The notes under the pieces were generated by a model that saw nothing but the letters and a program-made list of their open reading frames with translations, ran no database searches and was not told the origin of the DNA. Below, piece by piece: positions 1 to 14,518 of a stretch of 64,000 nt of DNA; positions within the stretch are counted from its first letter, which is position 1, and every line of letters starts with the position of its first letter. Location: IMG/VR virus record IMGVR_UViG_3300032243_000867, positions 1 through 64,000 of that record; one strand, written 5' to 3'. A program made the translations under genes and the position numbers. The stretch is from a virus. Taxonomy: Duplodnaviria > Caudoviricetes.

Positions 1-294
1 CGTCGCCTCGCCGCGTGCCCACCGTCGTGCCGTCTCGATCGCTGCACGAGGGCGATCCTCGCCCGCGGGGACGTGACGGAGCGCCGTCTCGGCGCACGCG
101 CACGCCGCGAGCACCAGCGTCTGCCGGTCGAGCAAGCCGCGAACGTGCAGTTCGCCCAGCAGCCACATGAGCCAGTCAGGCCGCGGGCACGACGCCCACG
201 CAGCCGCAGCGTCGGGCTGCGTCGCGACCCACGCACGGGCCTCGGCGCAAGCGTCGAGCGCCTTGAGTTGGCGCAGCAGCGTTTCGGTGTTCAT
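1..294 (-). CDS. Imm5-like domain protein (truncated at window edge)
   Basis: Hand translation from ATG at 294: MNTETLLRQLKALDACAEARAWVATQPDAAAAWASCPRPDWLMWLL...LVLAACACAETALRHVPAGEDRPRAAIETARRWARGEA; AAGGAG RBS upstream; resembles the Imm5-like helical family. Confidence 0.6.
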   Translation of the reverse strand, partial: MNTETLLRQLKALDACAEARAWVATQPDAAAAWASCPRPDWLMWLLGELHVRGLLDRQTLVLAACACAETALRHVPAGEDRPRAAIETARRWARGEAT

Positions 295-316
295 CAGGTC
301 GATCTCCTTCTGCCCC

Positions 317-346
317 CTAACCGGACGGGAGGGGGGTCCATTAGCG
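317..346 (-). promoter_or_regulatory. 30-bp leader motif copy 1 (NNCTAA-NNGA-CCCCCC-N6-CCGGTTAG)
   Basis: cgctaatggacccccctcccgtccggttag on minus strand just upstream of the RBS of 1..294. Confidence 0.7.
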
Positions 347-403
347 CCCCGGCGCGGAATCGAACCGCGCTGACCCGCCCCCGGCGAACCGGGGGCGCGG
401 GGC
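342..403 (-). ncRNA. tRNA-like minihelix element 1
   Basis: Acceptor-like GCCCCGC/CCGGGGC (6 of 7 bp), central CCCCCGG-TTCG-CCGGGGG hairpin, T-arm CGCGG-TTCGATT-CCGCG, then G + CTA. Confidence 0.5.
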
Positions 404-412
404 GATGCCGCA

Positions 413-1084
413 TCACGCGGCGGGGATCACCGTCGTCCCCTTGGCACTCACCAGGGGGAGGCCCGCGAAGCAGCCGCGCACCGCCGCCCAGAGCGCGGTG
501 AGCTGGTCGGCGGGCACGGTCCACACCTTCGCGTCGGCGTCCCAGCGCCGCCCCGGCAGGGCGCGGACGGCGGCGATGAACCGCTCGTCGCGGGGGCTGG
601 TCACCGCGAGCACCTCGCGGCTGTACTCCTTCCCCTTGAAGGTCCAGCGGTCGGTGCGGGAGGCGATGCGAACCTCCCCGGCGACCGGGGCGGTCACCGC
701 GCCCAGCTTCACGCGGGCGCGCTTGGCGCAACGCGCGCCGAGCTTGTCGTACCCGAGGGCGTGGAGCGCGTCGGGGATCCAACGGGCGGTCTTGAAGTTC
801 GCCGCGAAGCGGTGAACGAGCACGTTCGCCACCCGGTGCGCCGTGGCGGCGCTCTCGTCGGTGATGAGAGACTCGGGAGCGCCGAGCTCGCTCCCGAAGT
901 TCGCGAGGATCGTGCGGGCGGCGGTCCAGTCGGGGGTGCAGGTCTGCACGTCCCGACCGTGCATCGCACGGCAGTCCGGCCCGACGCCCGCCTGGACGCT
1001 GTCGGCGTCCACGAGGGGCTTGCCGCAGCAAGCACAGTGGGTGGCGAGGAGCTTGGTGGCGGCGGCGTTCACGTAGTTGTTCAT
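413..1084 (-). CDS. Zn-binding DUF6011-like N-terminus plus HARP-like C-terminal domain protein
   Basis: Start MNNYVNAAA with GGGAG RBS; CACCGKPLVDADSVQAGVGPDC motif; C-terminal FIAAVRALPGRRWDADAKVWTVP. Confidence 0.65.
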   Translation of the reverse strand: MNNYVNAAATKLLATHCACCGKPLVDADSVQAGVGPDCRAMHGRDVQTCTPDWTAARTILANFGSELGAPESLITDESAATAHRVANVLVHRFAANFKTARWIPDALHALGYDKLGARCAKRARVKLGAVTAPVAGEVRIASRTDRWTFKGKEYSREVLAVTSPRDERFIAAVRALPGRRWDADAKVWTVPADQLTALWAAVRGCFAGLPLVSAKGTTVIPAA

Positions 1085-1142
1085 GTGATCTCCCTGGGGC
1101 CTTGTTGGCCACTCGGTTTCGGTTTCGTTCCCCCTACACTCC

Positions 1143-1172
1143 CTAACCGGAGCGCAGGGGGGTCCCTTAGCG
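1143..1172 (-). promoter_or_regulatory. 30-bp leader motif copy 2
   Basis: cgctaagggacccccctgcgctccggttag. Confidence 0.7.
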
Positions 1173-1220
1173 GGAATCGTAGGGGGCGTTCGCTTTCGCG
1201 CCGCCGTCCCCCCGCAACTC

Positions 1221-1250
1221 CTAACCGGAGGGGAGGGGGGTCGCTTAGTG
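1221..1250 (-). promoter_or_regulatory. 30-bp leader motif copy 3 (variant A)
   Basis: cactaagcgacccccctcccctccggttag. Confidence 0.7.
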
Positions 1251-1414
1251 GGAATCGTACGAATCCCGTAAGTACGCGAAACCATTAGGGAATCGGTCGG
1301 CACGGATTGTGCTACGCGCGGGCGCGGTCCTATTACTACGGGGGGCGGGGGATTGCCCTACGTTACCCTACGTTACGTTACGTTCAGAGAATTGAACGGG
1401 GCCGTTTCGATTTC
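1251..1414. repeat. Divergent control cassette core, copy 1 (direct repeat of 11891-12055)
   Basis: 48-nt block 1267-1314 is identical to 11907-11954 and 36-nt block 1357-1392 is identical to 11998-12033; contains TACGT tandem repeats. Confidence 0.85.
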
Positions 1415-1444
1415 CACTAATGGACCCCCCCGGCTTCCGGTTAG
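1415..1444 (+). promoter_or_regulatory. 30-bp leader motif copy 4 (variant B)
   Basis: cactaatggacccccccggcttccggttag. Confidence 0.7.
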
Positions 1445-1513
1445 GGGTTGCGGGGGGACGACGGGGCGAACGGTTCGCCCCGAACCCAACGGCTTTCAAA
1501 GGAGACGACGACC

Positions 1514-1867
1514 ATGACGACCATCCTCATCAACCTCACCCCCCACGCTATCTGCCTCCGCTCCGCCGACGGGGCCGACACGGTGATCCCGCCGAGCGGC
1601 ACCGTCGCGCGGGTGAGCTCCACCCCCGGCGCTCTGGAGGCCGTTGCGGGCATCCCCGTGCCCGTGGCCGGGGCCCAGACCTTCGGGGGCGTCGAAGGGC
1701 TCCCCGAGCCCACCCCGGGCACGATGTTCATCGTGTCCGCGCTCGTCCTCTCGGCCCTGCGCGGCTCGCGCCCGGACGTGGTGGGCCCCGGCACCGGCCC
1801 CAACGACGGGGCCGTGCGGAACGACAGGGGACACATCATCGCCGTCACCCGCCTCGTGCGGGGCTGA
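1514..1867 (+). CDS. Conserved phage hypothetical protein (INLTPH motif)
   Basis: AAGGAG RBS; MTTILINLTPHAI...PSGTVARV...FIVSALV. Confidence 0.7.
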   Translation: MTTILINLTPHAICLRSADGADTVIPPSGTVARVSSTPGALEAVAGIPVPVAGAQTFGGVEGLPEPTPGTMFIVSALVLSALRGSRPDVVGPGTGPNDGAVRNDRGHIIAVTRLVRG

Positions 1868-1903
1868 CGGGGCGACGACAACATCCCGTTCTGATCCGCC
1901 CCC

Positions 1904-1948
1904 CCTGCGAAGGTCACACGCTGGGTTCGATTCCCGGCGGCAGGGCCA
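1904..1948 (+). ncRNA. tRNA-like minihelix element 2
   Basis: CCTGC/GCAGG acceptor-like pairing (5 of 7), T-arm CTGGG-TTCGATT-CCCGG, then 7 nt + discriminator G + CCA. Confidence 0.55.
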
Positions 1949-1988
1949 ACCGACAACCGAGCGGCATCGCGCCGACAAGGAGACCACC

Positions 1989-2339
1989 ATGGAAATCGAG
2001 AAGTACGTCATCACCACCCTCACCACCCTCAACGGCTTCCGCCCCGAGCTCGCCGCCGCCCTGCGCGACGGCGCGACGGGCTACGAGGAGGGGGGCGAGA
2101 TCGAGCTCGCAGTCGATTTCGACTGCGATTACTCACCCGCCCGGGCGGGCGGGTGGGACGGGCCTGACGAGCCCGCCACCGTGGACTTCACGGTGCGGGC
2201 GGGCAACGTCCGCCTCACCGACCACGAGGTCGCGGCCCTGTGGCCCGACGACGCGGCCCTGAACCGCGACGTGCTCGCGGAGGTCGAAGGGGCCCTCGCG
2301 GACAGCGAGTGGGACTTCGACCCCTGCGACCTGTACTAA
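1989..2339 (+). CDS. Hypothetical protein (acidic)
   Basis: AAGGAG RBS, MEIEKYVITTL..., coding-like codon usage. Confidence 0.7.
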   Translation: MEIEKYVITTLTTLNGFRPELAAALRDGATGYEEGGEIELAVDFDCDYSPARAGGWDGPDEPATVDFTVRAGNVRLTDHEVAALWPDDAALNRDVLAEVEGALADSEWDFDPCDLY

Positions 2340-2364
2340 TGGACCCCCCCTCCCCCCCGGTTAG
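2334..2364 (+). promoter_or_regulatory. 30-bp leader motif copy 5 (31 nt)
   Basis: tactaatggaccccccctcccccccggttag; overlaps the TAA stop of 1989..2339. Confidence 0.65.
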
Positions 2365-2405
2365 GGGGGGCGGCGGTGCGAAGGGTTTGCCCCGCCCGCC
2401 AACCT

Positions 2406-2456
2406 AGCCACCGTCAATCGGGACACCTCGCGGTTCGACTCCGTGGGTGGCTACCA
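2406..2456 (+). ncRNA. tRNA-like minihelix element 3
   Basis: Perfect 7-bp acceptor AGCCACC/GGTGGCT, T-arm CGCGG-TTCGACT-CCGTG, discriminator A, CCA; only a 16-nt connector instead of D and anticodon arms. Confidence 0.65.
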
Positions 2457-2491
2457 AACCAACCGGGCCTGACGGCCCAGAGGAGAGTTCG

Positions 2492-2827
2492 ATGATGATT
2501 GATTTGGGTCTCACGACCCCGGGCGAGATCGCCCGCCTCCGCACCGACACCTTCGAGGTGGCCGCTGAGGACTACCTCGCGGTGGTTCACGTCGCCGCGT
2601 CCGCGGACGGCAACCCCGCCGGGGGTATGCCCTTCCGTACCGCCGTGACCGTCGCCGCCGAAGTGTGGCGCGACGGCATGGACGACGACGGTGACGGTGA
2701 GCCCGTCACCGACGCGGCGGGCATCGCCGCGCTGCTGGGCTGCTCGCCCGAAGGGCTCGCGGCCCATCTCGTCGAGATGGTCTGCGACCGTGCGCTCGCC
2801 GCGTACGAAGCCCGCTACGACTACTGA
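2492..2827 (+). CDS. Hypothetical protein
   Basis: AGGAG RBS; MMIDLGLTTPGEIARLR... Confidence 0.7.
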   Translation: MMIDLGLTTPGEIARLRTDTFEVAAEDYLAVVHVAASADGNPAGGMPFRTAVTVAAEVWRDGMDDDGDGEPVTDAAGIAALLGCSPEGLAAHLVEMVCDRALAAYEARYDY

Positions 2828-2841
2828 CCCCTACAGGAGAG

Positions 2842-3417
2842 ATGACCATGACCAAGTTCGCCGTTTCCAACGTCTGTTCAGCGTTCACCCCCTCCCCCGT
2901 CGGCACCAAGGTGACCGACGCGGGTGCCTTCACCGCAGCCCTCGCCCTCGCCGTCGAGGCGCACGACACGGCGGGGGACCGCACCCCCGGCCAGCACTTC
3001 GTGACCCTGCCGGGTGACGCCCTCGCGACCGTCTCGGCGGGCGTCGCCCGTCGCGCGGACGTGCCCGAGGACGGGTACGTTGTGCGCGTCCACCGGGGCC
3101 GCGCCGAGTGCTTCGCCGCGCGCCGCTGGCGCGCCCCTACCGCGGGCCTCGCCGCCGTCGTCTACACCCGCGCGGCCTACGCGGCGGACCCGCAGGTGAC
3201 CGCCGCCGAGGCGGCCTCCATCCCCGGTGACGCGACGCACGTCATCGTGGCGGTGCTGGCCTTCGCGGGGCCGCGCGCCCCCCTGTCCCCGCACCGCTTC
3301 GTCGCGAACCTCGCGGGCGGCAACAAAGACGCCGCGACGTACACGGCGGACGAGATGCGGGCGATGGCCCGCGAGATCATCGCCTACGACGACGAGTGGA
3401 TCGTCGTCGCGGGCTGA
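2842..3417 (+). CDS. Hypothetical protein, possibly DUF3228-like
   Basis: AGGAG RBS; VVYTRAAY...THVIVAVLA...PLSPHRFVANLAGGN; family assignment tentative. Confidence 0.65.
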   Translation: MTMTKFAVSNVCSAFTPSPVGTKVTDAGAFTAALALAVEAHDTAGDRTPGQHFVTLPGDALATVSAGVARRADVPEDGYVVRVHRGRAECFAARRWRAPTAGLAAVVYTRAAYAADPQVTAAEAASIPGDATHVIVAVLAFAGPRAPLSPHRFVANLAGGNKDAATYTADEMRAMAREIIAYDDEWIVVAG

Positions 3418-3429
3418 AAGGAGACCGCC

Positions 3430-3795
3430 ATGCGAACCAAGACCCTTGAGGAAAACATCAAGGCGGAGCTCACCGCTTCCGCCCCCGTGACCGTGCTGGA
3501 GTACCAGCCGGGGAACGGCACCCGGTACCTCCTGCACATCACCGACCTTCGGGCGCTTTCCGAAGCGCCCCCGCAGGTCACAGCGTACGCGGGTCACGGC
3601 GCGTACTACGTGGCCCTGTACACCCAAGGCCACGGGACGTGCATGACCATCGCGGACACGGGCGGGTACCTGTCCCCCGTCTACGTCGCCAGCAAGCTGG
3701 GGGTGGGCGAGGGCGATGCGCTCGTCCTCGCGGAGATCATCGCCCGGTACACGGGCCGCACGGCGCTGGACGCCAGCGTGGACGTGGCGTCGTGA
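3430..3795 (+). CDS. Hypothetical protein
   Basis: AAGGAG RBS; 121-aa ORF in operon. Confidence 0.7.
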   Translation: MRTKTLEENIKAELTASAPVTVLEYQPGNGTRYLLHITDLRALSEAPPQVTAYAGHGAYYVALYTQGHGTCMTIADTGGYLSPVYVASKLGVGEGDALVLAEIIARYTGRTALDASVDVAS

Positions 3796-4142
3796 ACCGC
3801 AAACTCGTTCGTAACGAGGGCGAGATCGTCGCCCTTGTGGTATCTGTCCTTGGGGAAGGGAACCCCAAGGCCCTCGAAGACATGCTGGGCATCGAGTTCG
3901 CCTACTCGGACGGTCGCTACCCCAGTGACCTCGAAGACGCCACCCCCTACGATGGGGACTGGTCGTGGGAGGACCAGCCCGTGGACTTCACCACCTACCG
4001 CCACGGCGAGGAGCCATACTTCCCGGCGACGTACCCCGCCTTGGCCCTGTACCTGTTCGACGATGACTTCGACCGGGGCGGGTCGGTGCGTACGCGGGTG
4101 CTGCTCTACGTCGAGCGCCACGAACTGGAGGGGGCGTCGTGA
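3792..4142 (+). CDS. Hypothetical protein
   Basis: GTGA overlap with previous stop; acidic/aromatic composition. Confidence 0.65.
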   Translation: MNRKLVRNEGEIVALVVSVLGEGNPKALEDMLGIEFAYSDGRYPSDLEDATPYDGDWSWEDQPVDFTTYRHGEEPYFPATYPALALYLFDDDFDRGGSVRTRVLLYVERHELEGAS

Positions 4143-4507
4143 GGGTCGCGATCAGCTACGAAACAGCCCTCGCGCGGCACCCCGCCGCCGTCGCGGAGGT
4201 GCTGGCAATACTCGCCAAGTCCCGGTCCAAGGACTCGGACTGCGACCCCACTCACTTCGCGTGGGCCTACTCGTGGGGCCTCTCCTTCCAGTGCGCCACG
4301 CTGGGCGAACTCCTCGCGGGGCGCAAACTCTCCGAGACCCGCTCGCTGGAAGAGCGCGTCGGGAGCATCTCCCTCTACGCCGACAAGGGCCGGAAGTACG
4401 CCTACTCCCACGGCACCTACGACTACGCCCGCGACGGGGCTGAAGCCCTTCCGCCCGAAGTGCGGGCCTATCACTGCGCGGAGCGCCCCGAACTCGAAGG
4501 TTCGTAG
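4139..4507 (+). CDS. Hypothetical protein
   Basis: GTGA overlap; 122 aa. Confidence 0.65.
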   Translation: MRVAISYETALARHPAAVAEVLAILAKSRSKDSDCDPTHFAWAYSWGLSFQCATLGELLAGRKLSETRSLEERVGSISLYADKGRKYAYSHGTYDYARDGAEALPPEVRAYHCAERPELEGS

Positions 4508-4608
4508 CGTAACCGGGCCTTCGGTCGGTATCCCGCTAGGGCGAAAAGTTACCCGACCGCTTCGGGGGGGGTCGGGCGACGGGGGTTTTCGCTACGAAGT
4601 TTCGATTC

Positions 4609-4648
4609 GCCGGGGCGACTCCCCTCGAAGGGAGTCGCCCCGGCCTTT
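4609..4648 (+). terminator. Intrinsic terminator
   Basis: Perfect 15-bp stem GCCGGGGCGACTCCC/GGGAGTCGCCCCGGC followed by CTTTT. Confidence 0.7.
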
Positions 4649-4699
4649 TCGCGTTCCGAAAGTTCTTCGGTCCGGGGGGCGTAACGGAAGGAGAGGACG

Positions 4700-4993
4700 A
4701 TGGATCGTGACCATGGCTTGAACGGGTGCGACTGCTGCGGATGCTCTCAAGGCTCCCACGAGGGCGAGGGCCTTGAGGCGTATGTGATCCGGGGGCGTTG
4801 CGAAACCTCCCGCCGCATCCGTGCAGGGGAGCGTCTCCCTTGCGCCGCGTGCGGGGAGGGAGACGTGGGGATGACCCCTTGCACCGCGTGCAAAACAAAC
4901 GCCGCTGACAGCGGCATGGTCCCTTACTCGGTGCTGGGGCTCACACCTCCCCGACCTCTCTTCAAGGAGTGGTGCGGGTTCCTCAACGACTGA
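4700..4993 (+). CDS. Cys-rich hypothetical protein
   Basis: AGGAGAGG RBS; CDCCGC, CAAC, CTAC motifs; GGGCGTAAC at 4677-4685. Confidence 0.6.
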   Translation: MDRDHGLNGCDCCGCSQGSHEGEGLEAYVIRGRCETSRRIRAGERLPCAACGEGDVGMTPCTACKTNAADSGMVPYSVLGLTPPRPLFKEWCGFLND

Positions 4994-5005
4994 AGGGTGT
5001 TGGTG

Positions 5006-5152
5006 ATGGAATGGGTAGTGGTCCGTGGGGGTTCCTACCGCTACCGCTACGGGGTGATGGTTCGGGCGGCGAAGGTCTGCAAAGAGCCTCCCGAGTCGCT
5101 CGACCGGGAGCCCGGGTTCCGCACCCGCCTACCTGTGAGGCAACCGAGATGA
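5006..5152 (+). CDS. VR-like micro-ORF 1 (FGE/CLec C-terminal segment only)
   Basis: Hand translation MEWVVVRGGSYRYRYGVMVRAAKVCKEPPESLDREPGFRTRLPVRQPR; stop overlaps next ATG. Confidence 0.65.
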   Translation: MEWVVVRGGSYRYRYGVMVRAAKVCKEPPESLDREPGFRTRLPVRQPR

Positions 5153-5319
5153 CCAAGAACGGCAACGAGTCACCGATCTTGGGCGTTCGCGGCGGCAACT
5201 GGGACAACGACCGTAGGTTCTATGTGCGGGTGTCGTTGGAGGAGATTCAGTTTGGCTCCCAGCTTCGGGGCACGGACACGGGTTTCCGCACCTCCCTCTC
5301 TGCGAGGCAACCGAGATGA
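5149..5319 (+). CDS. VR-like micro-ORF 2
   Basis: MTKNGNESPILGVRGGNWDNDRRFYVRVSLEEIQFGSQLRGTDTGFRTSLSARQPR; ATGA overlaps at both ends. Confidence 0.7.
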   Translation: MTKNGNESPILGVRGGNWDNDRRFYVRVSLEEIQFGSQLRGTDTGFRTSLSARQPR

Positions 5320-5471
5320 ACACCCCGTACTTCCGCATCCGAGGGGGATGTTGGATCGCCCGCGATCCGTGGTGGGTTCGCCCTGCGCTCGACACCCCAC
5401 AGAAAGCTGACGTGAACATCAACAGTCTCGGGTTCCGCACCTCCCTCCCTGCAAGGATGCACCGCGTATGA
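5316..5471 (+). CDS. VR-like micro-ORF 3
   Basis: MNTPYFRIRGGCWIARDPWWVRPALDTPQKADVNINSLGFRTSLPARMHRV; ATGA overlaps. Confidence 0.7.
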   Translation: MNTPYFRIRGGCWIARDPWWVRPALDTPQKADVNINSLGFRTSLPARMHRV

Positions 5472-5641
5472 GCGCCACCAAACTTCGAGAAGAATCCCAC
5501 CTTGTTCTTCGTGGGGGTTCTTGGAACCGCACGGGTACCCGCACCTTGCGTACCTATTTCAAAGGGGGGGAGCGACCCGCGCATTTCGACGACTGTCTGG
5601 GATTCCGCACGATGCTGCTGGGGCGTAAGGCACGGGCATGA
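5468..5641 (+). CDS. VR-like micro-ORF 4
   Basis: MSATKLREESHLVLRGGSWNRTGTRTLRTYFKGGERPAHFDDCLGFRTMLLGRKARA; stop overlaps the kinase ATG. Confidence 0.7.
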   Translation: MSATKLREESHLVLRGGSWNRTGTRTLRTYFKGGERPAHFDDCLGFRTMLLGRKARA

Positions 5642-6174
5642 AGCTCATCGTTTTGGAAGGCTGCGACGGCACGGGTACGAGCACCAACGCGAAGAAGTTG
5701 GGGGAGGCCCTCCAGCGCGAGGGCTACAAGACCCTCGTCTACCACCACCCGCCACATCGTCCGGGTGGGGGTGACTGGGAGCGGTCCCTGCACTACGCGA
5801 GGGAGCGGGCCGAGATGGCCACCCGCACGGCGGACGACACGGTGGTGGTGGCGGACCGCTGGGTGTACAGCACGGATGCGATTGCCAAGACCCTCGACGG
5901 CGAGGTTCGTGGGAGGCTGCTGGCCCTCACGGCACTGGAGAGGCAGTCTCTCCCGACCCCCACGCTCATCGTCCTGCTCGACGCCCCCGACGCGGTGCTG
6001 GACGAGAGGCTCACGGCCCGTGGCGAGTCTCTCCCTCCGCACCGTGGCGAGCTTCGTCGTGTGTACCGCGAGAGCATCGCCATGACGTGCGACGTGACGG
6101 TGAACACGGCGGGAGATAGCGGTCGGGTGTCTGACCGTCTGTTGTCCTTGGCCAAGGCTGCACTGGAGGACTGA
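5638..6174 (+). CDS. tmk: Thymidylate kinase-like (dNMP kinase)
   Basis: LIVLEGCDGTGTST P-loop, VVVADRWVYS, TLIVLLDAP. Confidence 0.8.
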   Translation: MKLIVLEGCDGTGTSTNAKKLGEALQREGYKTLVYHHPPHRPGGGDWERSLHYARERAEMATRTADDTVVVADRWVYSTDAIAKTLDGEVRGRLLALTALERQSLPTPTLIVLLDAPDAVLDERLTARGESLPPHRGELRRVYRESIAMTCDVTVNTAGDSGRVSDRLLSLAKAALED

Positions 6175-6175
6175 C

Positions 6176-6340
6176 ATGAGCAAGGGTCTACCGAGGGTCT
6201 GGAAGGCGACGGTCACGTACGAGGTGTACGTTCTCTCACACCGCGCCGACGAAGCAGCGGACTGCGCCAAGCTGAACCGGGACTGCTACGCGGACATCGA
6301 GCAATGGCTGGAGCGCATCAAGAAGGAGGGGGGCAAGTGA
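6176..6340 (+). CDS. Small hypothetical protein
   Basis: GGAGG RBS; MSKGLPRVWKATVTYEVYVLSHRADEAAD...; resembles the N-terminus of the next ORF. Confidence 0.55.
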   Translation: MSKGLPRVWKATVTYEVYVLSHRADEAADCAKLNRDCYADIEQWLERIKKEGGK

Positions 6341-6672
6341 GCGAACCCAAGCTGTACCGGGTAAGAATCGAAGCCGACGTGTACGTCGTCGCGGCCAGCG
6401 AGCGCGACGCCGAGGACTACGCCCTGCGGGAGAGTGACGTGGTGAACGACGCGATGGACAACGCCGACGCCACGGCTTCCGTCGTCACGGCGAAGAGTCT
6501 GAGCGGCGCGGAGGAGAACTGCCTCCCGTGGGTGGACGACGACTTGGAAGACGGCGAGGTTGACCGGGACCGCACGGTGAAGGCATGGGCGGAACTGAAC
6601 GACGCCTCCACGGCCCAAGCCAAGCGCGAGCGTGAGTTCAACGCCAAGCAACTGAACATCCCGGGGACGTGA
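6337..6672 (+). CDS. Hypothetical protein
   Basis: GTGA overlap with GGAGG RBS; VSEPKLYRVRIEADVYVVAAS... Confidence 0.65.
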   Translation: MSEPKLYRVRIEADVYVVAASERDAEDYALRESDVVNDAMDNADATASVVTAKSLSGAEENCLPWVDDDLEDGEVDRDRTVKAWAELNDASTAQAKREREFNAKQLNIPGT

Positions 6673-6887
6673 TGCGAACCTACCACATTCGCATGAGGGA
6701 CGACTACGGGTGGACCTTGGGGAAGGTATCCCCCGACGCGCCCAACAACAGCGCCGTTCTCACCGTCGAGCGGGACGGCACCCGCTGGGTCAGCCGGGTC
6801 AACGTGGACCGCCTGTCCATCGCAGACCTTTCCTCCCTCGCGGAGTTCTGCGCGCACGCGAAGCTCGACACCGGGCGCGGGACGTGA
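6672..6887 (+). CDS. Hypothetical protein
   Basis: Overlaps previous stop; 71 aa. Confidence 0.55.
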   Translation: MRTYHIRMRDDYGWTLGKVSPDAPNNSAVLTVERDGTRWVSRVNVDRLSIADLSSLAEFCAHAKLDTGRGT

Positions 6888-7052
6888 CCGTGGACGCGAC
6901 CCTACGGCAGACGAGCGGGTCATCCGCAACGGTTACCGTGGTTACCTTGCGGGGAGCATGGAGGCCATCGTAGACACCGCAGCCCCCTGCGAGGCGGTGG
7001 GGGCACGGTTGCTTGAGCTCTCCCCAGCGGCCCTTCGGGCGTAAGGTAGACC

Positions 7053-7712: not shown

Positions 7713-7729
7713 TGACCACCGAGGACGCC

Positions 7730-7963
7730 ATGACCGTGGACGCGACCGTAGAAGACCTCCGAACGCTGATCGGGGACGTGCTGTTCCAACGGGGTTATGG
7801 TTCGGGGTCCTTCGACCCGTACACGCGGGATCACGAACCCGGTTGGCACTACGTCCAAGTGGACGCCCGTTCCTACGACGTTCGTAGGCTGACGGTCAAC
7901 GAGCGGGGTCGTACGGAAGCCGAAGCCTTGCGGGGTGTATTGGACGCCCTTGGAGTACCGTGA
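7730..7963 (+). CDS. Hypothetical protein
   Basis: GAGGA RBS; MTVDATVEDLRTLIGDVLFQRG...; alternative start 7712. Confidence 0.55.
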   Translation: MTVDATVEDLRTLIGDVLFQRGYGSGSFDPYTRDHEPGWHYVQVDARSYDVRRLTVNERGRTEAEALRGVLDALGVP

Positions 7964-8138
7964 ACCTAGATCAAGCCCGAGCTCTGACCGCACGGTTCCC
8001 CGCCTATTCCCCGCCCCCCGTAGCGGGCCCCCGGTAGCGGTGGTTTCTGCCGCTTCCCACCGCGCACCGTCCCCTGAAGCCGAGCGGCGACAGGGGGGTG
8101 GGCTGGGAGCCCGCCCCTACGGAGAACGGGGACAGCCA

Positions 8139-8636
8139 ATGAAGAAGAAGTCCAGCGAGCACGGTGCCGGGTCTGACGGCAACTACATGACGAAGCAGAA
8201 CCTGTGGCTCGCCCACCGCGTGAGCCAGATGCTCTACAACGGCATCCCCGACGGGGTTCTTCTCCCCGATTGGGCCGAGAGCAAGATCAACAGCGCCGCC
8301 CAGCACCTGAAGGAGGTCGCCGGGTGGGCGATGCACGAGTCTCACGGCGATAACCTTCACCCCGCCCCCGAGGCGAACCCCATTCACCTTGCGGGTGAGG
8401 GGGAGCTAAGGTCGAAGCTGGTCCGTCTGGCTCACGAGAACCCCGATCTCCGCCCCCACCTCCTCCCGCTGCTGACCAAGACGGCGGCGGGGGACAAGTG
8501 CGTGGTGTGCGGCAAGCCGGGGGAGGAGATCCGTTACAACGTCCGGGGGTCCGACGGGACGGAGCTCGCGGGGCGCGTGTTCATCAAGGGCTCGGTGCTT
8601 TGCGACAAGCACCAGGAGATGCTCGAAGGCACCTGA
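8139..8636 (+). CDS. Putative head-associated protein carrying the LRSKxxRLAH tag
   Basis: LPDWAESKINSAAQHL helical segment; internal LRSKLVRLAHENPDLRPHLLPLLTKTAA; C-terminal CVVC. Confidence 0.7.
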   Translation: MKKKSSEHGAGSDGNYMTKQNLWLAHRVSQMLYNGIPDGVLLPDWAESKINSAAQHLKEVAGWAMHESHGDNLHPAPEANPIHLAGEGELRSKLVRLAHENPDLRPHLLPLLTKTAAGDKCVVCGKPGEEIRYNVRGSDGTELAGRVFIKGSVLCDKHQEMLEGT

Positions 8637-8672
8637 CCGCCCGGGAGCGAAGAATAACACCAACGAGAAAAG

Positions 8673-8715
8673 CCGCCCCCCGTACCCCGGCGCGATGCCG
8701 GGGTACGGGGGGCGG
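8673..8715. terminator. Bidirectional terminator between convergent genes
   Basis: Perfect 19-bp stem CCGCCCCCCGTACCCCGGC/GCCGGGGTACGGGGGGCGG, A-run before and T-run after. Confidence 0.75.
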
Positions 8716-8720
8716 TTTCG

Positions 8721-9176
8721 TTACGCGGGGGAGACGCCGGGGAGGGACTTGAGAGACACCCGCGGGGTGTTCGGCACCAGGTCCGCCACGCTCGCGACGT
8801 GCGCTTGCACCGCGGGCGGGAAGCAAGCCAGGAAAGTCGGGTCCGCCTTCCGAAGCGAGAGCTTCACCTCGTAGATGGCGTTGAACAGGTCTCCCAACGC
8901 AGCCCTCTCGCCGTCCACCGTCGCGGCGGGGGTGAGCTTCAGCGACGGTCCGGGCACGACCACCTTGGCTTGGGTGAGCCCGTCACCGTCGAAGGTGACG
9001 GTGGATTTGCCAGAGGCGACCGCGAGGGCGCGCACCTCGCGCTTAAAGGGCTCCAGTGCCTCCTGGCACGCCTCGATGGCGTTCCAGAGCGCGGAGGCAG
9101 CGGCCACCTTCGAGGCGAGAGGGGCGGCGGGGTCGTTGATGAGGGCGGTGTGGGCGCTGATGTCGAGGGCTTTCAT
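8721..9176 (-). CDS. Hypothetical protein
   Basis: AAAGGA RBS; MKALDISAHTALIND...; ends at the terminator. Confidence 0.7.
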   Translation of the reverse strand: MKALDISAHTALINDPAAPLASKVAAASALWNAIEACQEALEPFKREVRALAVASGKSTVTFDGDGLTQAKVVVPGPSLKLTPAATVDGERAALGDLFNAIYEVKLSLRKADPTFLACFPPAVQAHVASVADLVPNTPRVSLKSLPGVSPA

Positions 9177-9238
9177 GATCGTGGTCCTTTCGTAGCGGCT
9201 GAGCCGCACCGGGTTGGATTCGGAATATTCGTACGGGT

Positions 9239-9308
9239 CGGTGACCGCCGCAGGACTCGAACCTGCGTCCCGACCGAGGCGCGATGACGGTAGCGCCGTC
9301 GGGCGGTT
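9239..9308 (-). ncRNA. tRNA-like minihelix element 4
   Basis: Acceptor-like AACCGCC/GGCGGTC (6 of 7), central GGCGC/GCGCC hairpin, perfect T-arm GCAGG-TTCGAGT-CCTGC, discriminator A, then CCG. Confidence 0.55.
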
Positions 9309-9394
9309 TCCATAGGCTCGCGGGGGAGGTTCCCGCAAGCACGGTCGTAAGGGGGAAGCGCCCGCCCCCCGGCAACGGGGGGCGGGCCGGTCCG

Positions 9395-10333
9395 TCACTT
9401 CGCGACCGTGCTGGAGGGAGGGGTTTCGTCGGCGTGGTACAGGCCGAAACCCGGCAGGTACCGAATCGAGTCCCCCGCCTTGATCGGGCGACCCGAGGCC
9501 GCGCAGATGCCGTCCACGCGGGCCTTCAGGGTCATGCCCGCGTCGGGCGCGGCCTTGGCCGCGGAGGGGGCGTTCGCCGCGCCCACCGCCGCGTCGAGCT
9601 TGGCGACCGACGCGGTCACCGGGGAGGGCGCGGCGGGCGTCTCGGTGGAGAGCTTGCTGGCCAGGAGCGTCAGCGTCGCCGCCTTGGCGTTCCGGCACCA
9701 CCCAGCGAGGGGGCACTTGCCGCACTCGCCGGACTTCGCCGCCCACGCGCCGAAGCACTCGGTGGAGGCCACCGCGAGGGCGCGGATGTCGTCGTCGTTC
9801 AGCCACGCGGGCACGTCCGCCGCGGGCGCGTTCGCCGCGGGCGCGTTCGCCACCTTCAGGCGGCGCTTCGCCGCCACCGGGGCGGGCGCTTCCGGGGCGG
9901 GCGCTTCCGGGGCGGGCGCTTCCGGGGCGGCGGCGGGCTCCTCAGCCCGAGCCATCGCGGGGGGCTCCGCCGCGGGGGTCGCGGCGGGCTCGTCGGGGGT
10001 GGGGGCCGTTCCCGCTTTGCGGGGCTTGGGAGCCCCGAGGTACTTGTCCCGGTCCTGCGGCGGGAGCGTCCCGCTCGCGAGGGCCTCGCGGCCCAGGTCC
10101 GTGATGGCCCACGTTCCGCGCGTGGGGTCGGACACGATCCCGCGTGCCTTGAGGTCCCACTTCCCGTTGCCCACCGCAGTGCGGTGGGCCTTGTCGGCGG
10201 GGTCGCCGCCGAGCTCCTTGAGGGCCGCGTCCACGGCGGCGTCCACGGCGAGCTCGCCGTTGGGGGCACCCGCCAGGGCGCGGAGCAGGGGGAACTGGGT
10301 GGTGGACTGGCTGATTTTGTTCGTCATCGTCAT
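9395..10333 (-). CDS. Mrr-N-like winged-helix protein with Ala/Pro linker and Cys clusters
   Basis: PLLRALA...LKARGIVSDPTRGTWAITDLGREAL resembles the Mrr N-terminal domain; EAPAP x3 linker; ECFG...ECGKCPLAGWC and C-terminal CAASG...H. Confidence 0.7.
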   Translation of the reverse strand: MTMTNKISQSTTQFPLLRALAGAPNGELAVDAAVDAALKELGGDPADKAHRTAVGNGKWDLKARGIVSDPTRGTWAITDLGREALASGTLPPQDRDKYLGAPKPRKAGTAPTPDEPAATPAAEPPAMARAEEPAAAPEAPAPEAPAPEAPAPVAAKRRLKVANAPAANAPAADVPAWLNDDDIRALAVASTECFGAWAAKSGECGKCPLAGWCRNAKAATLTLLASKLSTETPAAPSPVTASVAKLDAAVGAANAPSAAKAAPDAGMTLKARVDGICAASGRPIKAGDSIRYLPGFGLYHADETPPSSTVAK

Positions 10334-10349
10334 CGTCTCCTTCTGCCCC

Positions 10350-10379
10350 CTAACCGGAAGCCGGGGGGGTCCATTAGTG
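10350..10379 (-). promoter_or_regulatory. 30-bp leader motif copy 6
   Basis: cactaatggacccccccggcttccggttag, directly before the AAGGAG of 9395..10333. Confidence 0.7.
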
Positions 10380-10395
10380 CGAATCAACCGGGCAT

Positions 10396-10451
10396 CGGTC
10401 GATTCCTCAGCCCCTCCGGGGTTACGCCCGGAGGGGCTGAGGAATCGACCG
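10396..10451. repeat. Perfect 25-bp inverted repeat (hairpin)
   Basis: CGGTCGATTCCTCAGCCCCTCCGGG-GTTACG-CCCGGAGGGGCTGAGGAATCGACCG. Confidence 0.9.
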
Positions 10452-10484
10452 GAGCGTTGCACTCCGGTCGCAGCGGGGGGGCCG

Positions 10485-11684
10485 TCAGACGGCGGGGGCG
10501 GCGAGGGGGTCGGCGGACACGTGGGAGGTGTCGCCCTCCTCCACCGCCCCGCCCTTCAGGTGCGGATCGACCAGGCGCTTGAGGGCCTCGCGGGTGTCCT
10601 CATTGGGAGCGCCCGCGAGGATGTCCTGGAGGCCCGAGCGGATGACGCGGGAGGCGGCGATGCCCGTGTAAAAGGTTGCCTCGACGGCCACGGCATCCAT
10701 CCAGTTGGACACCGTGCGGTGTCCGAAGTCGAGGAACAGTTCCTCCTTCTCGACGGCGTCGCGGATCGCCGTGGTCGCCCGCATCACGGCGGGGATCAGG
10801 TCGGGGAAGCGCGCCGCGAGCGCCGGGTACTTCGCGCGGAGCAGGGGCTCCTCATCGCGAGGGTCCATGTTGCTGAACGTCACCTTGAAGGTGAAGCGAT
10901 CCAACACGGACGTGTCCACCGGGGTCGCGGTGTAGCGCCCGGAGGTGTCGCCGCCACCCGCGGTGTTCGCGGTGGCGACGATGAGCGTACCGGGGAGCAC
11001 CTTGTGCATCCCGTTCGCGGCGGGCACGCGCCCGCCGAGGCTGTCGAGGATGGCGCGCAGGGGCTCCATCTGAGCCCGCGTTGCGCGGTCGATGTCGCTG
11101 AGGACGATCAGGTACGGGATCACCCGCCCGTCGGCGGTCTTGTAGCCGTCCCGCAGCGCGCGGAGGAGGTCGCCCTCCTCCCAGTACGTGCCCTGCGGCC
11201 CGAGCGCGCGGGTCGCCAACCACCCCTGGATGTCGGCATCCGGGGTGATGTTGAACACTCGCGCGGGGAGGCGCATCCGGGCGCTCAAGGCGCTGAAGAC
11301 CGCGTCCTTGCCCGTTCCGGGCGGTCCCCAAACCCAGAGGGGCTTGCTGTTGCCCGCCGCGACGCGGGCGGCGACGCGGCGCACCGCGTCGGCCAGCTTC
11401 CCGAAGCCCGGAACCGCGTACGCGGCGGGCAGGGGCAGACAGGCGTCCGCCGGAACGTCGAGGTTGACGGGCATCGGGATGCCCGCGAAGCGCGCGGTCA
11501 CCCCGCCAGCGGGGTTGAAGGCCGCGCGCCGACGCCCCTTGACGTGCGCGTCGTGCGCGGCTTCGAGGGCGGGGGAGGCGGTCTCCCCGTCGTACTCACC
11601 CTCCCCGAGCCCGTGGGCTTCGAGGAGGTGGGGGACCAGATAGTGCGCCTCGAAGGCGCACAGGTTGCACTTGAGCTTCGTCAT
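10485..11684 (-). CDS. MoxR/CobS-like AAA+ ATPase with N-terminal C2H2 zinc finger
   Basis: CNLC...HLLEAH; Walker A GPPGTGKD; Walker B-like IVLSDIDRA; ATANT; VLDRF; alternative start 11690. Confidence 0.85.
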   Translation of the reverse strand: MTKLKCNLCAFEAHYLVPHLLEAHGLGEGEYDGETASPALEAAHDAHVKGRRRAAFNPAGGVTARFAGIPMPVNLDVPADACLPLPAAYAVPGFGKLADAVRRVAARVAAGNSKPLWVWGPPGTGKDAVFSALSARMRLPARVFNITPDADIQGWLATRALGPQGTYWEEGDLLRALRDGYKTADGRVIPYLIVLSDIDRATRAQMEPLRAILDSLGGRVPAANGMHKVLPGTLIVATANTAGGGDTSGRYTATPVDTSVLDRFTFKVTFSNMDPRDEEPLLRAKYPALAARFPDLIPAVMRATTAIRDAVEKEELFLDFGHRTVSNWMDAVAVEATFYTGIAASRVIRSGLQDILAGAPNEDTREALKRLVDPHLKGGAVEEGDTSHVSADPLAAPAV

Positions 11685-11772
11685 CGTCATCCTCCGAATC
11701 GAGCAGGGACCGTTACGCCCGCGCTGCGCCACCGTGGCGCTGCACCCGCGTCCATCCGTCCCCCTCCGTTGC

Positions 11773-11802
11773 CTAACCGGAGGGGAGGGGGGTCCCTTAG
11801 TA
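11773..11802 (-). promoter_or_regulatory. 30-bp leader motif copy 7
   Basis: tactaagggacccccctcccctccggttag. Confidence 0.7.
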
Positions 11803-11860
11803 GGAATCAACCGCCCATCGGTCGATTCCGTCCGCCTCCCCCGCCGTCCCCCCGCAACCC

Positions 11861-11890
11861 CTAACCGGAAGCCGGGGGGGTCCATTAGTG
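11861..11890 (-). promoter_or_regulatory. 30-bp leader motif copy 8 (variant B)
   Basis: cactaatggacccccccggcttccggttag. Confidence 0.7.
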
Positions 11891-12055
11891 GGAATCGAAC
11901 GAATCGCGTAAGTACGCGAAACCATTAGGGAATCGGTCGGCACGGATTGTGCTAATCGTACGCGCGCGATCCGGTAAAATGGGGGCGCGGGGATTGACCT
12001 ACGTTACCCTACGTTACGTTACGTTCAGAGAATCGAGGGGGGCCGTTTCGATTTT
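11891..12055. repeat. Divergent control cassette core, copy 2
   Basis: Direct repeat of 1251-1414 (identical 48-nt and 36-nt blocks). Confidence 0.85.
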
Positions 12056-12085
12056 CACTAAGCGACCCCCCTCCCCTCCGGTTAG
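12056..12085 (+). promoter_or_regulatory. 30-bp leader motif copy 9 (variant A)
   Basis: cactaagcgacccccctcccctccggttag. Confidence 0.7.
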
Positions 12086-12143
12086 GCGTCGGAAGGGGAA
12101 CGGGAACGGTCGAACGGAATCGACCGCATGGCGTAACGAATTT

Positions 12144-12173
12144 CACTAATGGACCCCCCGGCGTTCCGGTTAG
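12144..12173 (+). promoter_or_regulatory. 30-bp leader motif copy 10
   Basis: cactaatggaccccccggcgttccggttag, just before the AAGGAG of the vWA gene. Confidence 0.7.
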
Positions 12174-12186
12174 GGGTCGGAAGGAG

Positions 12187-14394
12187 ATGACGATGACGAA
12201 AATGACGGATGAGCTCGCGATGCCCGGTAGCCGCGTGCGGGAAACGCACGCCGCGACGGTCCTCTCGATTGTTGGCCGGGAGCGGATGCTCCCGGTCGTG
12301 ACGCGGGGCACGGGGTTCGCCATGCGCGGACCCTTCGGATGGCGGGCGGTTGCGCCCGCCCTGTGCCGGGGCGAGCGCGACCCGCGCATCCTCGCGGAAC
12401 ACACGCGCTACGGATCGAACACTCCCGCGTCGATCCAGATCGCGGAGTGCGGCGATGACGTGCCCCGCCGCACCTACTTGGCCCTCATCGGTGGCGCGAG
12501 CCACGAGGCGTTCCATCGCCTCTATTCCCAGCAGGGCGTCCTCACGCCCGCCGTGATCGGCGCGGCTATCGCGCCCGTGAGGGCCAACCCGACCGTTGAC
12601 TGGTCGCGGCGCGCGAAGTTGGTCCTCGACCTCCAGAACGTGGTCGAGGACATCTACATCGAGCGGCTCGGGTGCGAGGAGTTCCCCGGGGTCGCCACAA
12701 AAATGGCGGACCTCGCGGACTACATCGTCCGCATGGAGGCGGACTCCCGCGAGAAGGCGGGCAACCCTCCCGCGACGGTCGTTCAGACCGTGTTCGTCGC
12801 GTGGCGCGACCTGGGCCTGGGGTACAACACCCCGACCCTGCGCGACAACCTCGCGCGGCTCGCCCGCGAGTGCCCGGAAGGGCTCGCGATGCTGCGCCCT
12901 GGCGGCGCGCTGCACGGCGTGTTCACGCGAAGCGTTCCCGACGTGCGGACCCCCGCCGCGCGGGAGCGGGCGAAGCAGGCCCTGCTCGACGGGATCGCCC
13001 TGACCCTCGCCCTCGAAGCGGTCGCGCACCTTGAGGGTGCGGCGAACGCCGAGGAGCCCCAGCCGTCGCAGGGCGGCGAGGGGAAGGGCAAGCCCCAGCC
13101 CGGTAAGGGCGGCGAACCCGCGAAGGGCGAACCTTCCGAGGGCGAACCCGCGAAGGGCGAACCTTCCGAGGGCGAACCTTCCGAGGGCGAACCCGCGAAG
13201 GGCGAACCCGCGAAGGGTGAGGGGCCGGGCGACCAGCCCGGTGACCCTTCCGACGCGGACGGCACCACCCACGACGGCACCAACGGCGTTGACGAGGCCG
13301 AAGGCTCCGCGAACGGCGCGGGCGGCGGCGAGGGCACGTCCACGGCGACCGCCAAGGACTTCCTCGACCAGCACGCCAAGGACGGCACGGGCACGCTGGA
13401 CTCGAACAGCGCACTCGAAGCGGGCGTCAAGGCCGACATGGAGGAGGGAACCCCCGACCCCAAAGACTACACCTCGCCCATGCCGTACCGCCCGTACAGC
13501 ACGGCGGCGGATGAAGTCGTCGGCGTGCGAGCCCACGCGGGAAACGCGGGCTCGTTCGCGGTCATCGCCCGCGAGGCCCGCAAGGGCACGGCGTACCTGC
13601 GGACGCGCCTCGCGGTGCTGTTCCGCGCGCTGGAAAACTCGGGCACCGAGCACGGTGTCCGCAAAGGCTCCGCGCTCTCCCCCCGGATGCTCGTGGACTC
13701 GTACTGCGAGATGCGGGGCGGCGTGATGCCCACGCGGGCCTACATGGACCGCACCCCGGCGATTGATATGTCCATCGCGGCGGCGCTGGTGATTGACGAG
13801 TCGAGCTCGATGAGAGACAAGCTCCGCGAGACGTGCGCGATTGCGTACACGCTCCTGGACGCCCTCGACGGCATCGGCGCGAAGTCGATGGCAATGGGCT
13901 TCCGCACCAAGTCGTACGATGCCGCGTACGACAACCGGGACTACACGGGCGCGAACGGTTGCCACCGCACGCACGCCATGTACTACGACGTGTTCAAGTC
14001 GTGGGGCGAGACCTTCAAGGCTTCCGCGCCGCGCTTGCGCGAGATCAAAGCCTCGGGCGGCACGCCCATGGCGGACGGCATTGAGTTCGCCCTGCGGGAA
14101 CTCAGCGCCCGCCCCGAAGGGCACCGCATCCTGTTCGTACTCACCGACGGCGAGCCCGACGGGGAGCACGCACGGGTCATCCCCACCCAGCTCCAGCGCG
14201 CCGCGGAAGCCGGTGTGCTGGTGATCGGTGTCGGTCTCGGGTCCGGGTCGGAAGGCGTCAAGACCCGGTTCCCCGACCATGTGTACGCTCGCGACCTCGA
14301 CGCCCTCCCGGCGGCACTGGTCCGCAAGCTGGAGGAGCTCGTACGCTCCCGCCACGCGGGCGCGAAGCGTGGCCGCACGGTCAAGGCCGCGTGA
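12187..14394 (+). CDS. CobT-like vWA domain protein (partner of the AAA ATPase)
   Basis: N-terminal SHEAFH (HExxH); MIDAS LVIDESSSM, GGTPM, VLTDGEP; start may be 12193. Confidence 0.85.
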   Translation: MTMTKMTDELAMPGSRVRETHAATVLSIVGRERMLPVVTRGTGFAMRGPFGWRAVAPALCRGERDPRILAEHTRYGSNTPASIQIAECGDDVPRRTYLALIGGASHEAFHRLYSQQGVLTPAVIGAAIAPVRANPTVDWSRRAKLVLDLQNVVEDIYIERLGCEEFPGVATKMADLADYIVRMEADSREKAGNPPATVVQTVFVAWRDLGLGYNTPTLRDNLARLARECPEGLAMLRPGGALHGVFTRSVPDVRTPAARERAKQALLDGIALTLALEAVAHLEGAANAEEPQPSQGGEGKGKPQPGKGGEPAKGEPSEGEPAKGEPSEGEPSEGEPAKGEPAKGEGPGDQPGDPSDADGTTHDGTNGVDEAEGSANGAGGGEGTSTATAKDFLDQHAKDGTGTLDSNSALEAGVKADMEEGTPDPKDYTSPMPYRPYSTAADEVVGVRAHAGNAGSFAVIAREARKGTAYLRTRLAVLFRALENSGTEHGVRKGSALSPRMLVDSYCEMRGGVMPTRAYMDRTPAIDMSIAAALVIDESSSMRDKLRETCAIAYTLLDALDGIGAKSMAMGFRTKSYDAAYDNRDYTGANGCHRTHAMYYDVFKSWGETFKASAPRLREIKASGGTPMADGIEFALRELSARPEGHRILFVLTDGEPDGEHARVIPTQLQRAAEAGVLVIGVGLGSGSEGVKTRFPDHVYARDLDALPAALVRKLEELVRSRHAGAKRGRTVKAA
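13111..13215 (+). repeat. 7 x 15-nt tandem repeat (GEPAK/GEPSE linker)
   Basis: GGCGAACCCGCGAAG and GGCGAACCTTCCGAG units. Confidence 0.9.
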
Positions 14395-14401
14395 CCCCCT
14401 A

Positions 14402-14464
14402 GCCTGAACGGTTCGCCCCGGTGATCACCGGGGCGGCGAGGTTCGATTCCCCGCCCAGGCTCCA
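14402..14464 (+). ncRNA. tRNA-like minihelix element 5
   Basis: GCCTG/CAGGC acceptor-like pairing (5 of 7), perfect 10-bp central hairpin CGCCCCGGTG/CACCGGGGCG, T-arm CGAGG-TTCGATT-CCCCG, discriminator T, CCA. Confidence 0.55.
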
Positions 14465-14518
14465 ACGCACATCCCCTCAACCAAGGGCCACCATGGCCCC
14501 GCGAACTGAAAGGACACC

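Follow-up and report, generated by a model that had tools for sequence, protein, structure and literature searches.

Why should a phage keep, between its early genes, small structures that carry the acceptor stem and T arm of a transfer RNA (tRNA) without its anticodon loop? The question is raised by the first 64 kilobases (kb; positions 1–64,000, hereafter the window) of IMGVR_UViG_3300032243_000867, a Caudoviricetes record in which an earlier note, made from the letters alone, had described five such elements. Six were detected in the record (E0 to E5), and by comparison with related phages they appear to be transcribed, selected RNA structures that have been conserved in a clade of giant phages from fresh water. 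They may be functional tRNA mimics that act as punctuation marks for RNA processing by host ribonuclease P (RNase P) and 3' processing, a reading whose chances we judge to be evenly balanced.

The record is a single contig of 265,895 base pairs (bp) with 64% GC and without end repeats, and is about 59% complete according to CheckV. Near-identical DNA and DNA of about 96% identity occur in many lake and freshwater metagenomes; among the runs listed for this region none was an RNA run, one labelled RNA being probably DNA. No DNA match to the record was found in the public phage and plasmid collections searched. The close relatives used for comparison were 13 metagenomic contigs with vWA identities of 52–92%. 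The element set comprised the six elements of the record and 29 elements of relatives with perfect T stems, 35 together; the E5 orthologue of contig L042, whose T stem pairs at 4/5 positions, is the 30th element in relatives.

Structure of the elements

All six elements share the core GG-UUCGA(U/C/G)U-CC, that is, the T arm GGTTCGAnTCC. A 3' strand of 12 nucleotides (nt) pairs with the 5' strand of the T stem (5–7 bp) and then with a distant 5' strand (5–7 bp), and is followed by a discriminator and the tail CCA (E2, E3, E5), CCG (E4) or CUA (E0, E1). The stack of acceptor and T stem is paired at 12/12 positions in E1, E2 and E3 and at 11/12 in E0, E4 and E5. Three architectures occur: a minihelix with a linker of 9–16 nt (E2, E3), a three-way junction with one inner GC hairpin of the form CGCCCC(C)GG-loop-CCGG(G)GGCG (E0, E1, E5), and a four-way junction (E4). 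The elements are 45–108 nt long and confined, all six, to about 15 kb, and the minimum-energy folds of E1, E2 and E5 reproduce the structures described here. A canonical tRNA cloverleaf is absent, as E1 and E5 have a single hairpin with loops of 4–6 nt and the arm loops of E4 are not anticodon loops.

Among the minihelices, E2 (1904..1948, + strand) has a 5–6-bp acceptor CCUGC/GCAGG, a 9–10-nt linker, a 7-bp T stem with the loop UUCGAUU and the tail G-CCA; its sense strand reads CCTGC ... CGCTGGG-TTCGATT-CCCGGCG-GCAGG-G-CCA. E3 (2406..2456, +) combines a perfect 7-bp acceptor AGCCACC/GGUGGCU with a 16-nt linker, a 5-bp T stem, the loop UUCGACU and the tail A-CCA (sense strand AGCCACC-16 nt-CGCGG-TTCGACT-CCGTG-GGTGGCT-A-CCA), and lies in the leader of the gene starting at 2492. 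The three-way element E1 (342..403, −) begins 10 nt past the stop codon of the DUF6011 gene. Its 6-bp acceptor GCCCCG/CGGGGC encloses an inner 9-bp hairpin with a UUCG loop, the linker GGUCA and a 6-bp T stem with the loop UUCGAUU, and its tail is G-CUA (sense strand GCCCCG / hairpin / GCGCGG-TTCGATT-CCGCGC / CGGGGC-G-CTA). E5 (14402..14464, +), also three-way, begins 8 nt past the vWA stop codon and consists of a 5-bp acceptor GCCUG/CAGGC, the conserved linker AACGGUU, an inner 8-bp hairpin, a 6–7-bp T stem with the loop UUCGAUU and the tail U-CCA; its sense strand, GCCTG ... GGCGAGG-TTCGATT-CCCCGCC-CAGGC-T-CCA, contains a single A.C mismatch, located in the T stem. When the whole record was scanned for the structure, E0 (genome 265568–265630, −) was added, a paralogue of E1 outside the window, which would lie about 670 bp past the left edge of the window if the record is circular or permuted.

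E4 (9239..9346, −) folds, in single sequences and in the RNAalifold consensus, as a cloverleaf-like four-way junction of about 108 nt. Its 6-bp acceptor GACCGU/GCGGUC has its true 5' strand, GACCGU, at 9346, separated from the T arm by two long arms: arm 1 with the loop AACCUCC, the conserved 9-nt linker CUAUGGAAA, and a long irregular arm 2. The T arm GCAGG-TTCGAGT-CCTGC, with a 6-bp T stem and the loop UUCGAGU, is followed by GGCGGTC-A-CCG, giving the tail A-CCG. Closing E4 within 9239–9308 was tried and dropped for the 5' strand at 9346, as that pairing is not kept by the orthologues.

The earlier note had thus placed all five elements correctly, each with its T loop, 12-nt 3' strand, discriminator and CCA, CCG or CTA, and had rightly described them as lying between early genes in the sense direction before a start codon; the gap from element end to start codon measured 36–63 nt. 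Its count of five stands for the window and misses E0 outside it. The span that it gave for E4, 9239–9308, holds only the 3' two-thirds of the element, and its statement that there is no D or anticodon arm is true of E2 and E3 but not of E0, E1 and E5 with their inner GC hairpin, nor of E4 with its two long arms. Its expectation that a tRNA finder would make no canonical call was borne out, as ARAGORN found 0 tRNA genes in the window.

Bacterial RNase P RNA pairs with C74–C75 of its substrate. These two residues, in tails of the form CC(A/G/C), are kept in 28 of the 35 elements, including E2, E3, E4 and E5, while A76 is present in only 16. The part kept in every type, judged from the sequences, appears to be what tRNA-end enzymes read, namely the T loop, the 12-nt coaxial stack and C74–C75 rather than A76, the body being free to vanish or be replaced.

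Expectation by chance and database searches

The background was estimated from first-order Markov simulations of the 266-kb record (60 runs). The loose T-loop motif was observed at 24 sites, with 23.8 simulated; requiring a 5/5 T stem left 6 sites against 0.9 simulated, and requiring in addition a 12/12 stack left 5 against 0.15 expected (maximum 2 in 60 runs). Those five full-stack sites are four elements and a true tRNA-Leu. A stack of at least 11/12, however, arises in most random T arms, and a 5-bp acceptor alone is not significant. As short acceptors are unconvincing by themselves, support has to come from the comparison with relatives. The sequence GTTCGANTC occurs 8 times in the window, all within the first 15 kb; three other sites were rejected as elements, two of them lying inside genes (7089, 13399) and one in the upstream half of a promoter-like motif (11892).

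The tRNA-Leu(UAG) at 75.9 kb is the single tRNA found by ARAGORN in the record, and the program found no transfer-messenger RNA (tmRNA) in the window or the record. A tmRNA tRNA-like domain was accordingly rejected as an identity for the elements, which moreover are only 45–108 nt long. In Rfam no element matched at the gathering threshold, and no tRNA, tmRNA or Y-RNA match appeared even at E ≤ 10. Rfam gave a sub-threshold match to CyVA-1 RNA at 8031–8106 (+; 33.4 bits against a gathering threshold of 41.4, E = 3e-4), in a region that is 79% conserved in contig L040. No tRNA was found by ARAGORN in 12 of the 13 close-relative contigs (L039–L042, L044–L051). An exact-pattern search of IMG/VR for E3 gave no match, and no published description of such elements in phages was found in the literature.

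Conservation and covariation in related phages

According to the contigs' own gene calls, every one of the 35 elements is intergenic and runs in the direction of its flanking genes (6/6 in this genome, 29/29 in relatives). The E4 family, aligned from 12 sequences (11 contigs and the window), has 26 consensus pairs in RNAalifold, 19 of them with double-sided compensation, including 4/6 acceptor pairs and 4/6 T-stem pairs. Across these 12 sequences the core of the linker CUGGA(A/C)AC is invariant and the loop motifs are largely kept; a thirteenth copy, in contig L051, has a variant T loop. By this alignment the E4-type RNA is in itself a new RNA family with strong covariation.

In the six E5 orthologues, 97.6% of cells pair, against 41–54% when the partner strand is slid. 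Acceptor pairs change from U-A to C-G or U.G, the A.C mismatch of the T stem is replaced by G-C or A-U, and the linker AAYGGUU is kept in all six. The E2 orthologue, L043:6942(−), has three compensatory T-stem pairs; it comes after the orthologous 116-amino-acid gene and not before it, and thus occupies a different junction. E3 is 95.7% identical over 69 nt to L048:17033–17101, with flanking genes at 68–74% identity, and the single stem difference turns a G.U into a G-C pair; its 16-nt linker is unchanged in a phage with a vWA identity of only 55%. An E1 orthologue was found at L045:10603. Among the differences listed for lake strain variants, E1 changes only in its hairpin loop and linker, and in another lake variant a further GC hairpin stands between E5 and the stop codon of the vWA gene. 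Pooling the non-orthologous minihelices in one alignment misaligns the acceptor strands and adds little. A count of 31 G.U against 5 A.C pairs in the stems is biased by the choice of stems and was not used as evidence.

Covariation, conservation and sense orientation taken together rule out chance, and a selected structure with covarying 5' strands rules out fragments of attachment (att) sites. The selection on structure that the earlier note had proposed is therefore supported by the compensatory changes, by the sense and intergenic position of 35/35 elements and by the conservation of E3 beyond that of its neighbour genes. The compensatory changes that it expected in related phages are present in 19 of the 26 E4-family pairs and in E2 and E5 orthologues too, and its doubt about relic attP half-sites proved justified by the elements' own covarying 5' strands. 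As to similar structures arising in random sequence, which it had named as a possible refutation, the answer depends on stringency: 12/12 stacks are rare (5 against 0.15 expected) but stacks of at least 11/12 are common by chance.

More distant relatives have tRNA arrays. G001, G002 and G003 (IMG/VR, vWA identity 40–46%) carry 44–46 tRNAs each, at L035 (G001, 101000–118500), L034 (G002, 188500–201000) and L036 (G003, 1–12000), and G002 also has a tmRNA. In G001 and G002, six to twelve further GGTTCGAnTCC T arms are left uncalled by ARAGORN, some of them only 50–70 nt apart, so that mimic elements may also occur inside the arrays; within 10 kb of the vWA gene no such element was found in these two genomes.

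Exchange of elements at gene junctions

The type of element present at a given gene junction differs between phages. After the vWA gene, an E5-type element is found in six loci, an E4-type cloverleaf in five others and none was detected in one. Before a gene of about 150 amino acids, eight loci have an E4-type element and three have a different cloverleaf of 85 nt with an 8-bp acceptor, and after the DUF6011 gene four types occur in four loci and none in two. The element replacing E4 at its junction belongs to a second cloverleaf-like family of about 85 nt (L046:6607–6711(−), L049:7025–7129(−), L050:5376–5480(−)), with the 8-bp acceptor GGGUUGUG/CACAACCC, a D-like arm and a branched middle arm. 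Since the junction is kept as the element type changes, a generic signal fits better than a specific trans-acting RNA.

A putative role in RNA processing

In animal mitochondria, multi-gene transcripts are resolved by tRNA punctuation, in which tRNA-shaped units between genes are excised. Those units are working tRNAs, whereas the elements described here have no anticodon loop and cannot decode. Plant mitochondria have t-elements, which were found with a GGTTCRANYCC screen and mark the messenger RNA ends that RNase P and RNase Z produce (PMC1920247). The RNase P and RNase Z cuts at t-elements were proposed and partly shown; once excised, the t-element builds up and can acquire C residues that are not encoded (PMC1920247). 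Our elements resemble them as non-canonical tRNA-like folds with the T-arm motif, placed within putative transcripts beside protein genes. They differ in that t-elements are organellar, few per genome and end-mapped, while the present ones are from a phage, number six per about 15 kb and are known from sequence alone; they also form several conserved structural families with a mostly encoded CC(A) tail, and share no sequence homology with t-elements.

A hairpin of acceptor stem, T stem and T loop with a 3' CCA motif suffices for accurate cutting by bacterial RNase P, and the 3' CCA or RCCA motif affects cleavage (PMC11143913). This minimal-substrate geometry, a coaxial acceptor/T helix with T loop, is present in the elements. 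Natural substrates of RNase P include the M3 RNA of phage phi80, the C4 antisense RNA of P1/P7 and multi-gene operon mRNAs (PMC11143913); the known phage substrates are single regulatory RNAs, unlike the repeated, multi-family intergenic set of putative substrates described here. The non-coding RNA YrlA, relatives of which (YrlA-like RNAs) also occur in phages, has a tRNA-like module of T arm, D-like arm and acceptor-like stem (PMC4201824), and the four-way junction of E4 is similar in overall layout. YrlA, however, lies beside Ro60/Rsr and has a Ro-binding stem, while here no TROVE gene was found in the about 59% complete record and no Y-RNA match in Rfam; E4, unlike YrlA, resembles a tRNA in having an acceptor made of its 5' and 3' ends.

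The anatomy of the elements (12-nt stack, C74–C75 in 28/35), the junctions that keep an element as its type changes and the analogy with t-elements lead us to propose, as the earlier note had suggested among other possibilities, that the elements function as punctuation marks, which we hold at even chances. Host RNase P would cut at the 5' end of the acceptor, and cleavage or trimming on the 3' side would leave the CC(A) end, which could be completed by a host enzyme or by a phage enzyme of CCA-adding type. A read-through or multi-gene early transcript would thus be split, so that the upstream message would end near its stop codon and the downstream message would begin about 35–60 nt before its start codon, with a small tRNA-like RNA released as a by-product. 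The phage encodes a 705-amino-acid protein (genome 196069–198186, +; L052:570–2687) that is predicted from its domains to be of the CCA-adding/poly(A) polymerase family type, with a PolyA_pol head at residues 328–479, a weak RNA-binding domain match and an N-terminal extension of about 320 amino acids. An RNase Z-type protein (PF12706), RNase P RNA (RF00010) and Ro60/TROVE (PF05731) were absent from the record, which is about 59% complete.

Sequences flanking the elements

A promoter-like motif accompanies the elements. In the form CTAAnnGACCCCCC-N6-8-CCGGTTAGG it has 11 copies in the record, all in the elements' approximately 15 kb and each directed at the next gene. One copy, of 29 bp and with the sequence CTAATGGACCCCCC-N6-CCGGTTAGG (316..344, −), abuts the 3' end of E1; another (2336..2365, +) lies 41 nt upstream of E3. 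The other copies in the window are at 1142–1170(−), 1220–1248(−), 1417–1445(+), 10349–10377(−), 11772–11800(−), 11860–11888(−), 12058–12086(+) and 12146–12174(+), and one lies outside it at genome 265529–265557(−). In many cases the upstream half of a 29–45-bp motif, ACGATTTCCACTAAnnGACCCCCC-N6-8-CCGGTTAGG, lies no more than 10 nt past the element, and this order of element and then motif recurs in relatives. There the 5' half has ATTA or CACTAA variants and CCGGTTAGG is invariant. Because the 5' half varies without compensation, the motif should be a promoter or protein-binding site and not an RNA hairpin; it is probably a phage-specific promoter, perhaps read by a phage sigma factor. A divergent control region between opposed genes (CCTACGTTACCCTACGTTACGTTACGTTCAGAGAAT and flanks) is duplicated at 1100–1450 and 11840–12190 of the window.

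Hairpins are also found next to some elements. GCCGC-GUGAU-GCGGC (406..420, −) contains the DUF6011 stop codon directly 5' of E1, recurs in L043 and L045, and might shield the upstream message at its 3' end. GGGCCA-CCA-UGGCCC (14485..14499, +) lies past E5, ahead of the ribosome-binding site of the following gene, and the downstream message might have its 5' end there. Hairpins of the type GGGCCA-N3-UGGCCC, followed by GAACUGAAAGGA and a start codon, have 12 copies in the record and relatives, 8 of them 26–48 nt downstream of elements of four types. Between the AAA gene and its neighbour lies a near-perfect hairpin of about 30 bp (10390–10457), probably a terminator that works in both directions, which gave spurious Rfam microRNA matches; a second GC hairpin is at 9355–9390.

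Proteins of the record include vWA/CobT-like, AAA_5 and DUF6011 proteins, a class II ribonucleotide reductase with an intein, RecD2 and a type IB topoisomerase. The gene downstream of E1 (1–294, −) encodes an Imm5-like immunity-protein domain (E = 7e-6), and the small genes beside E2, E3 and E5 have no relatives in IMG/VR. In L042, the relative at 92% identity, the vWA gene is paired with the DUF6011 gene and not with the AAA gene, which suggests recombination between the two cassettes that share the duplicated control region.

Alternative explanations

Several observations weigh against punctuation. Where an element lies directly upstream of the promoter-like motif, as several do, cutting would only trim a 3' tail. 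A bare cutting signal needs none of the linker and loop sequences GUCAAUCGGGACACCU, CUGGAAAC, AAYGGUU and CCUCCC that are also conserved in E3, E4 and E5. In E0 only 4/6 acceptor positions pair, and the CUA tails of E0 and E1 do not begin with CC. For the E5 family by itself, covariation does not differ significantly from that of shuffles (70/500), the changes being too few, and the hairpins between elements and start codons are no more stable than shuffled sequence. In one closely related lake strain the segment 1875–1981, including E2, is replaced by 14 nt (GGGGCGCTGGGAAC), so that at least this copy is dispensable.

The conservation of sequence beyond the helices (the E3 linker, CUGGA(A/C)AC, the loop motifs, AAYGGUU) is what one would expect if the released small RNAs mattered and not the cuts. 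Stable mimics of the top half of a tRNA would then bind or soak up tRNA-recognising proteins, such as host toxins acting on the acceptor or CCA end, modification enzymes or the CCA-adding-type enzyme of the phage, and would perhaps be aminoacylated. The clustering of the elements in the earliest-looking region and the presence of that enzyme agree with such a role, as does YrlA of M. smegmatis, an RNase P substrate to which CCA is added in vivo (PMC4201824). Yet a specific trans-acting RNA would hardly be exchanged for non-homologous types at one and the same junction. Many elements lack an encoded A76, the missing anticodon loop excludes anticodon nucleases as targets, and no partner protein was identified, nor a Ro60/TROVE gene in the about 59% complete record. 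We regard this function, which includes the decoys suggested in the earlier note, as unlikely; it ranks second to punctuation and is compatible with it. Less likely still is an element that acts in cis without being cut, be it as a stabiliser of 3' or 5' ends, a stop signal for the motif-reading polymerase or a translation element for the next gene. Position speaks for it: E1 and E5 begin 8–10 nt past a stop codon, E0, E1 and a number of orthologues reach up to the next promoter-like motif without an intervening intrinsic terminator, and all elements end 36–63 nt before a start codon. The conserved CCUCC loop in arm 1 of the E4 family also resembles an anti-Shine-Dalgarno sequence. A generic stabilising hairpin, however, needs no exact T-loop consensus, 12-nt stack or CC tail; no U-tract follows the elements, and GC hairpins already adjoin several of them.

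The two remaining explanations deny the elements an RNA function. Functionless, decaying remnants of a former phage tRNA array could account for the single called tRNA of this record, for the presence or absence of E2 between strains and for the distant relatives, with their arrays of 44–46 tRNAs and about a dozen uncalled T-loop sites. The elements are nevertheless scattered, one per gene junction, and not arrayed; every one is in the sense direction, compensatory conservation extends across phages with proteins at 52–92% identity, and E3 is more conserved than the surrounding coding sequence. Plain decay of a tRNA array is thus very unlikely, and since the record is about 59% complete and an array may lie off the contig, the absence of one from this phage cannot be claimed. 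Hardly credible, finally, are features at the DNA level, either relics of attP/attB half-sites or hot spots of recombination taken over from tRNA genes of the host. When mobile elements integrate, tRNA fragments consisting of T arm and 3' acceptor strand without the rest of the cloverleaf are commonly left behind (PMC9897764), a composition that our elements share; in L040, moreover, synteny is lost directly after E5, and relatives differ in which genes are neighbours. But the fragments left by integration have no matching 5' strand, duplicate the end of a host tRNA and flank an integrated element (PMC9897764), whereas, in a comparison confined to the phage sequences, each element here has its own complementary, covarying 5' strand and a conserved non-tRNA body between the acceptor strands. 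G.U pairs appear to be accepted in the sense strand alone, orientation follows transcription in 35/35, and no integrase domain was found among the genes beside the elements.

Punctuation could also be combined with a role of the released RNA. A clade-wide, interchangeable toolkit of anticodon-less mimics would end and start early messages, and the excised mimics, finished by the CCA-adding-type enzyme of the phage, would then serve as decoys protecting the acceptor ends of host tRNAs from CCA-end toxins. We consider this combination improbable.

Implications

If the elements are indeed punctuation marks, phages would use a tRNA punctuation like that of mitochondria, with stripped-down mimics that are unable to decode. 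Such marks would form an unannotated layer of phage gene expression that is missed by the standard tools for tRNAs and RNA families. The natural series from cloverleaf through three-way junction to minihelix would show which parts of a tRNA the end-processing enzymes require in order to recognise it.

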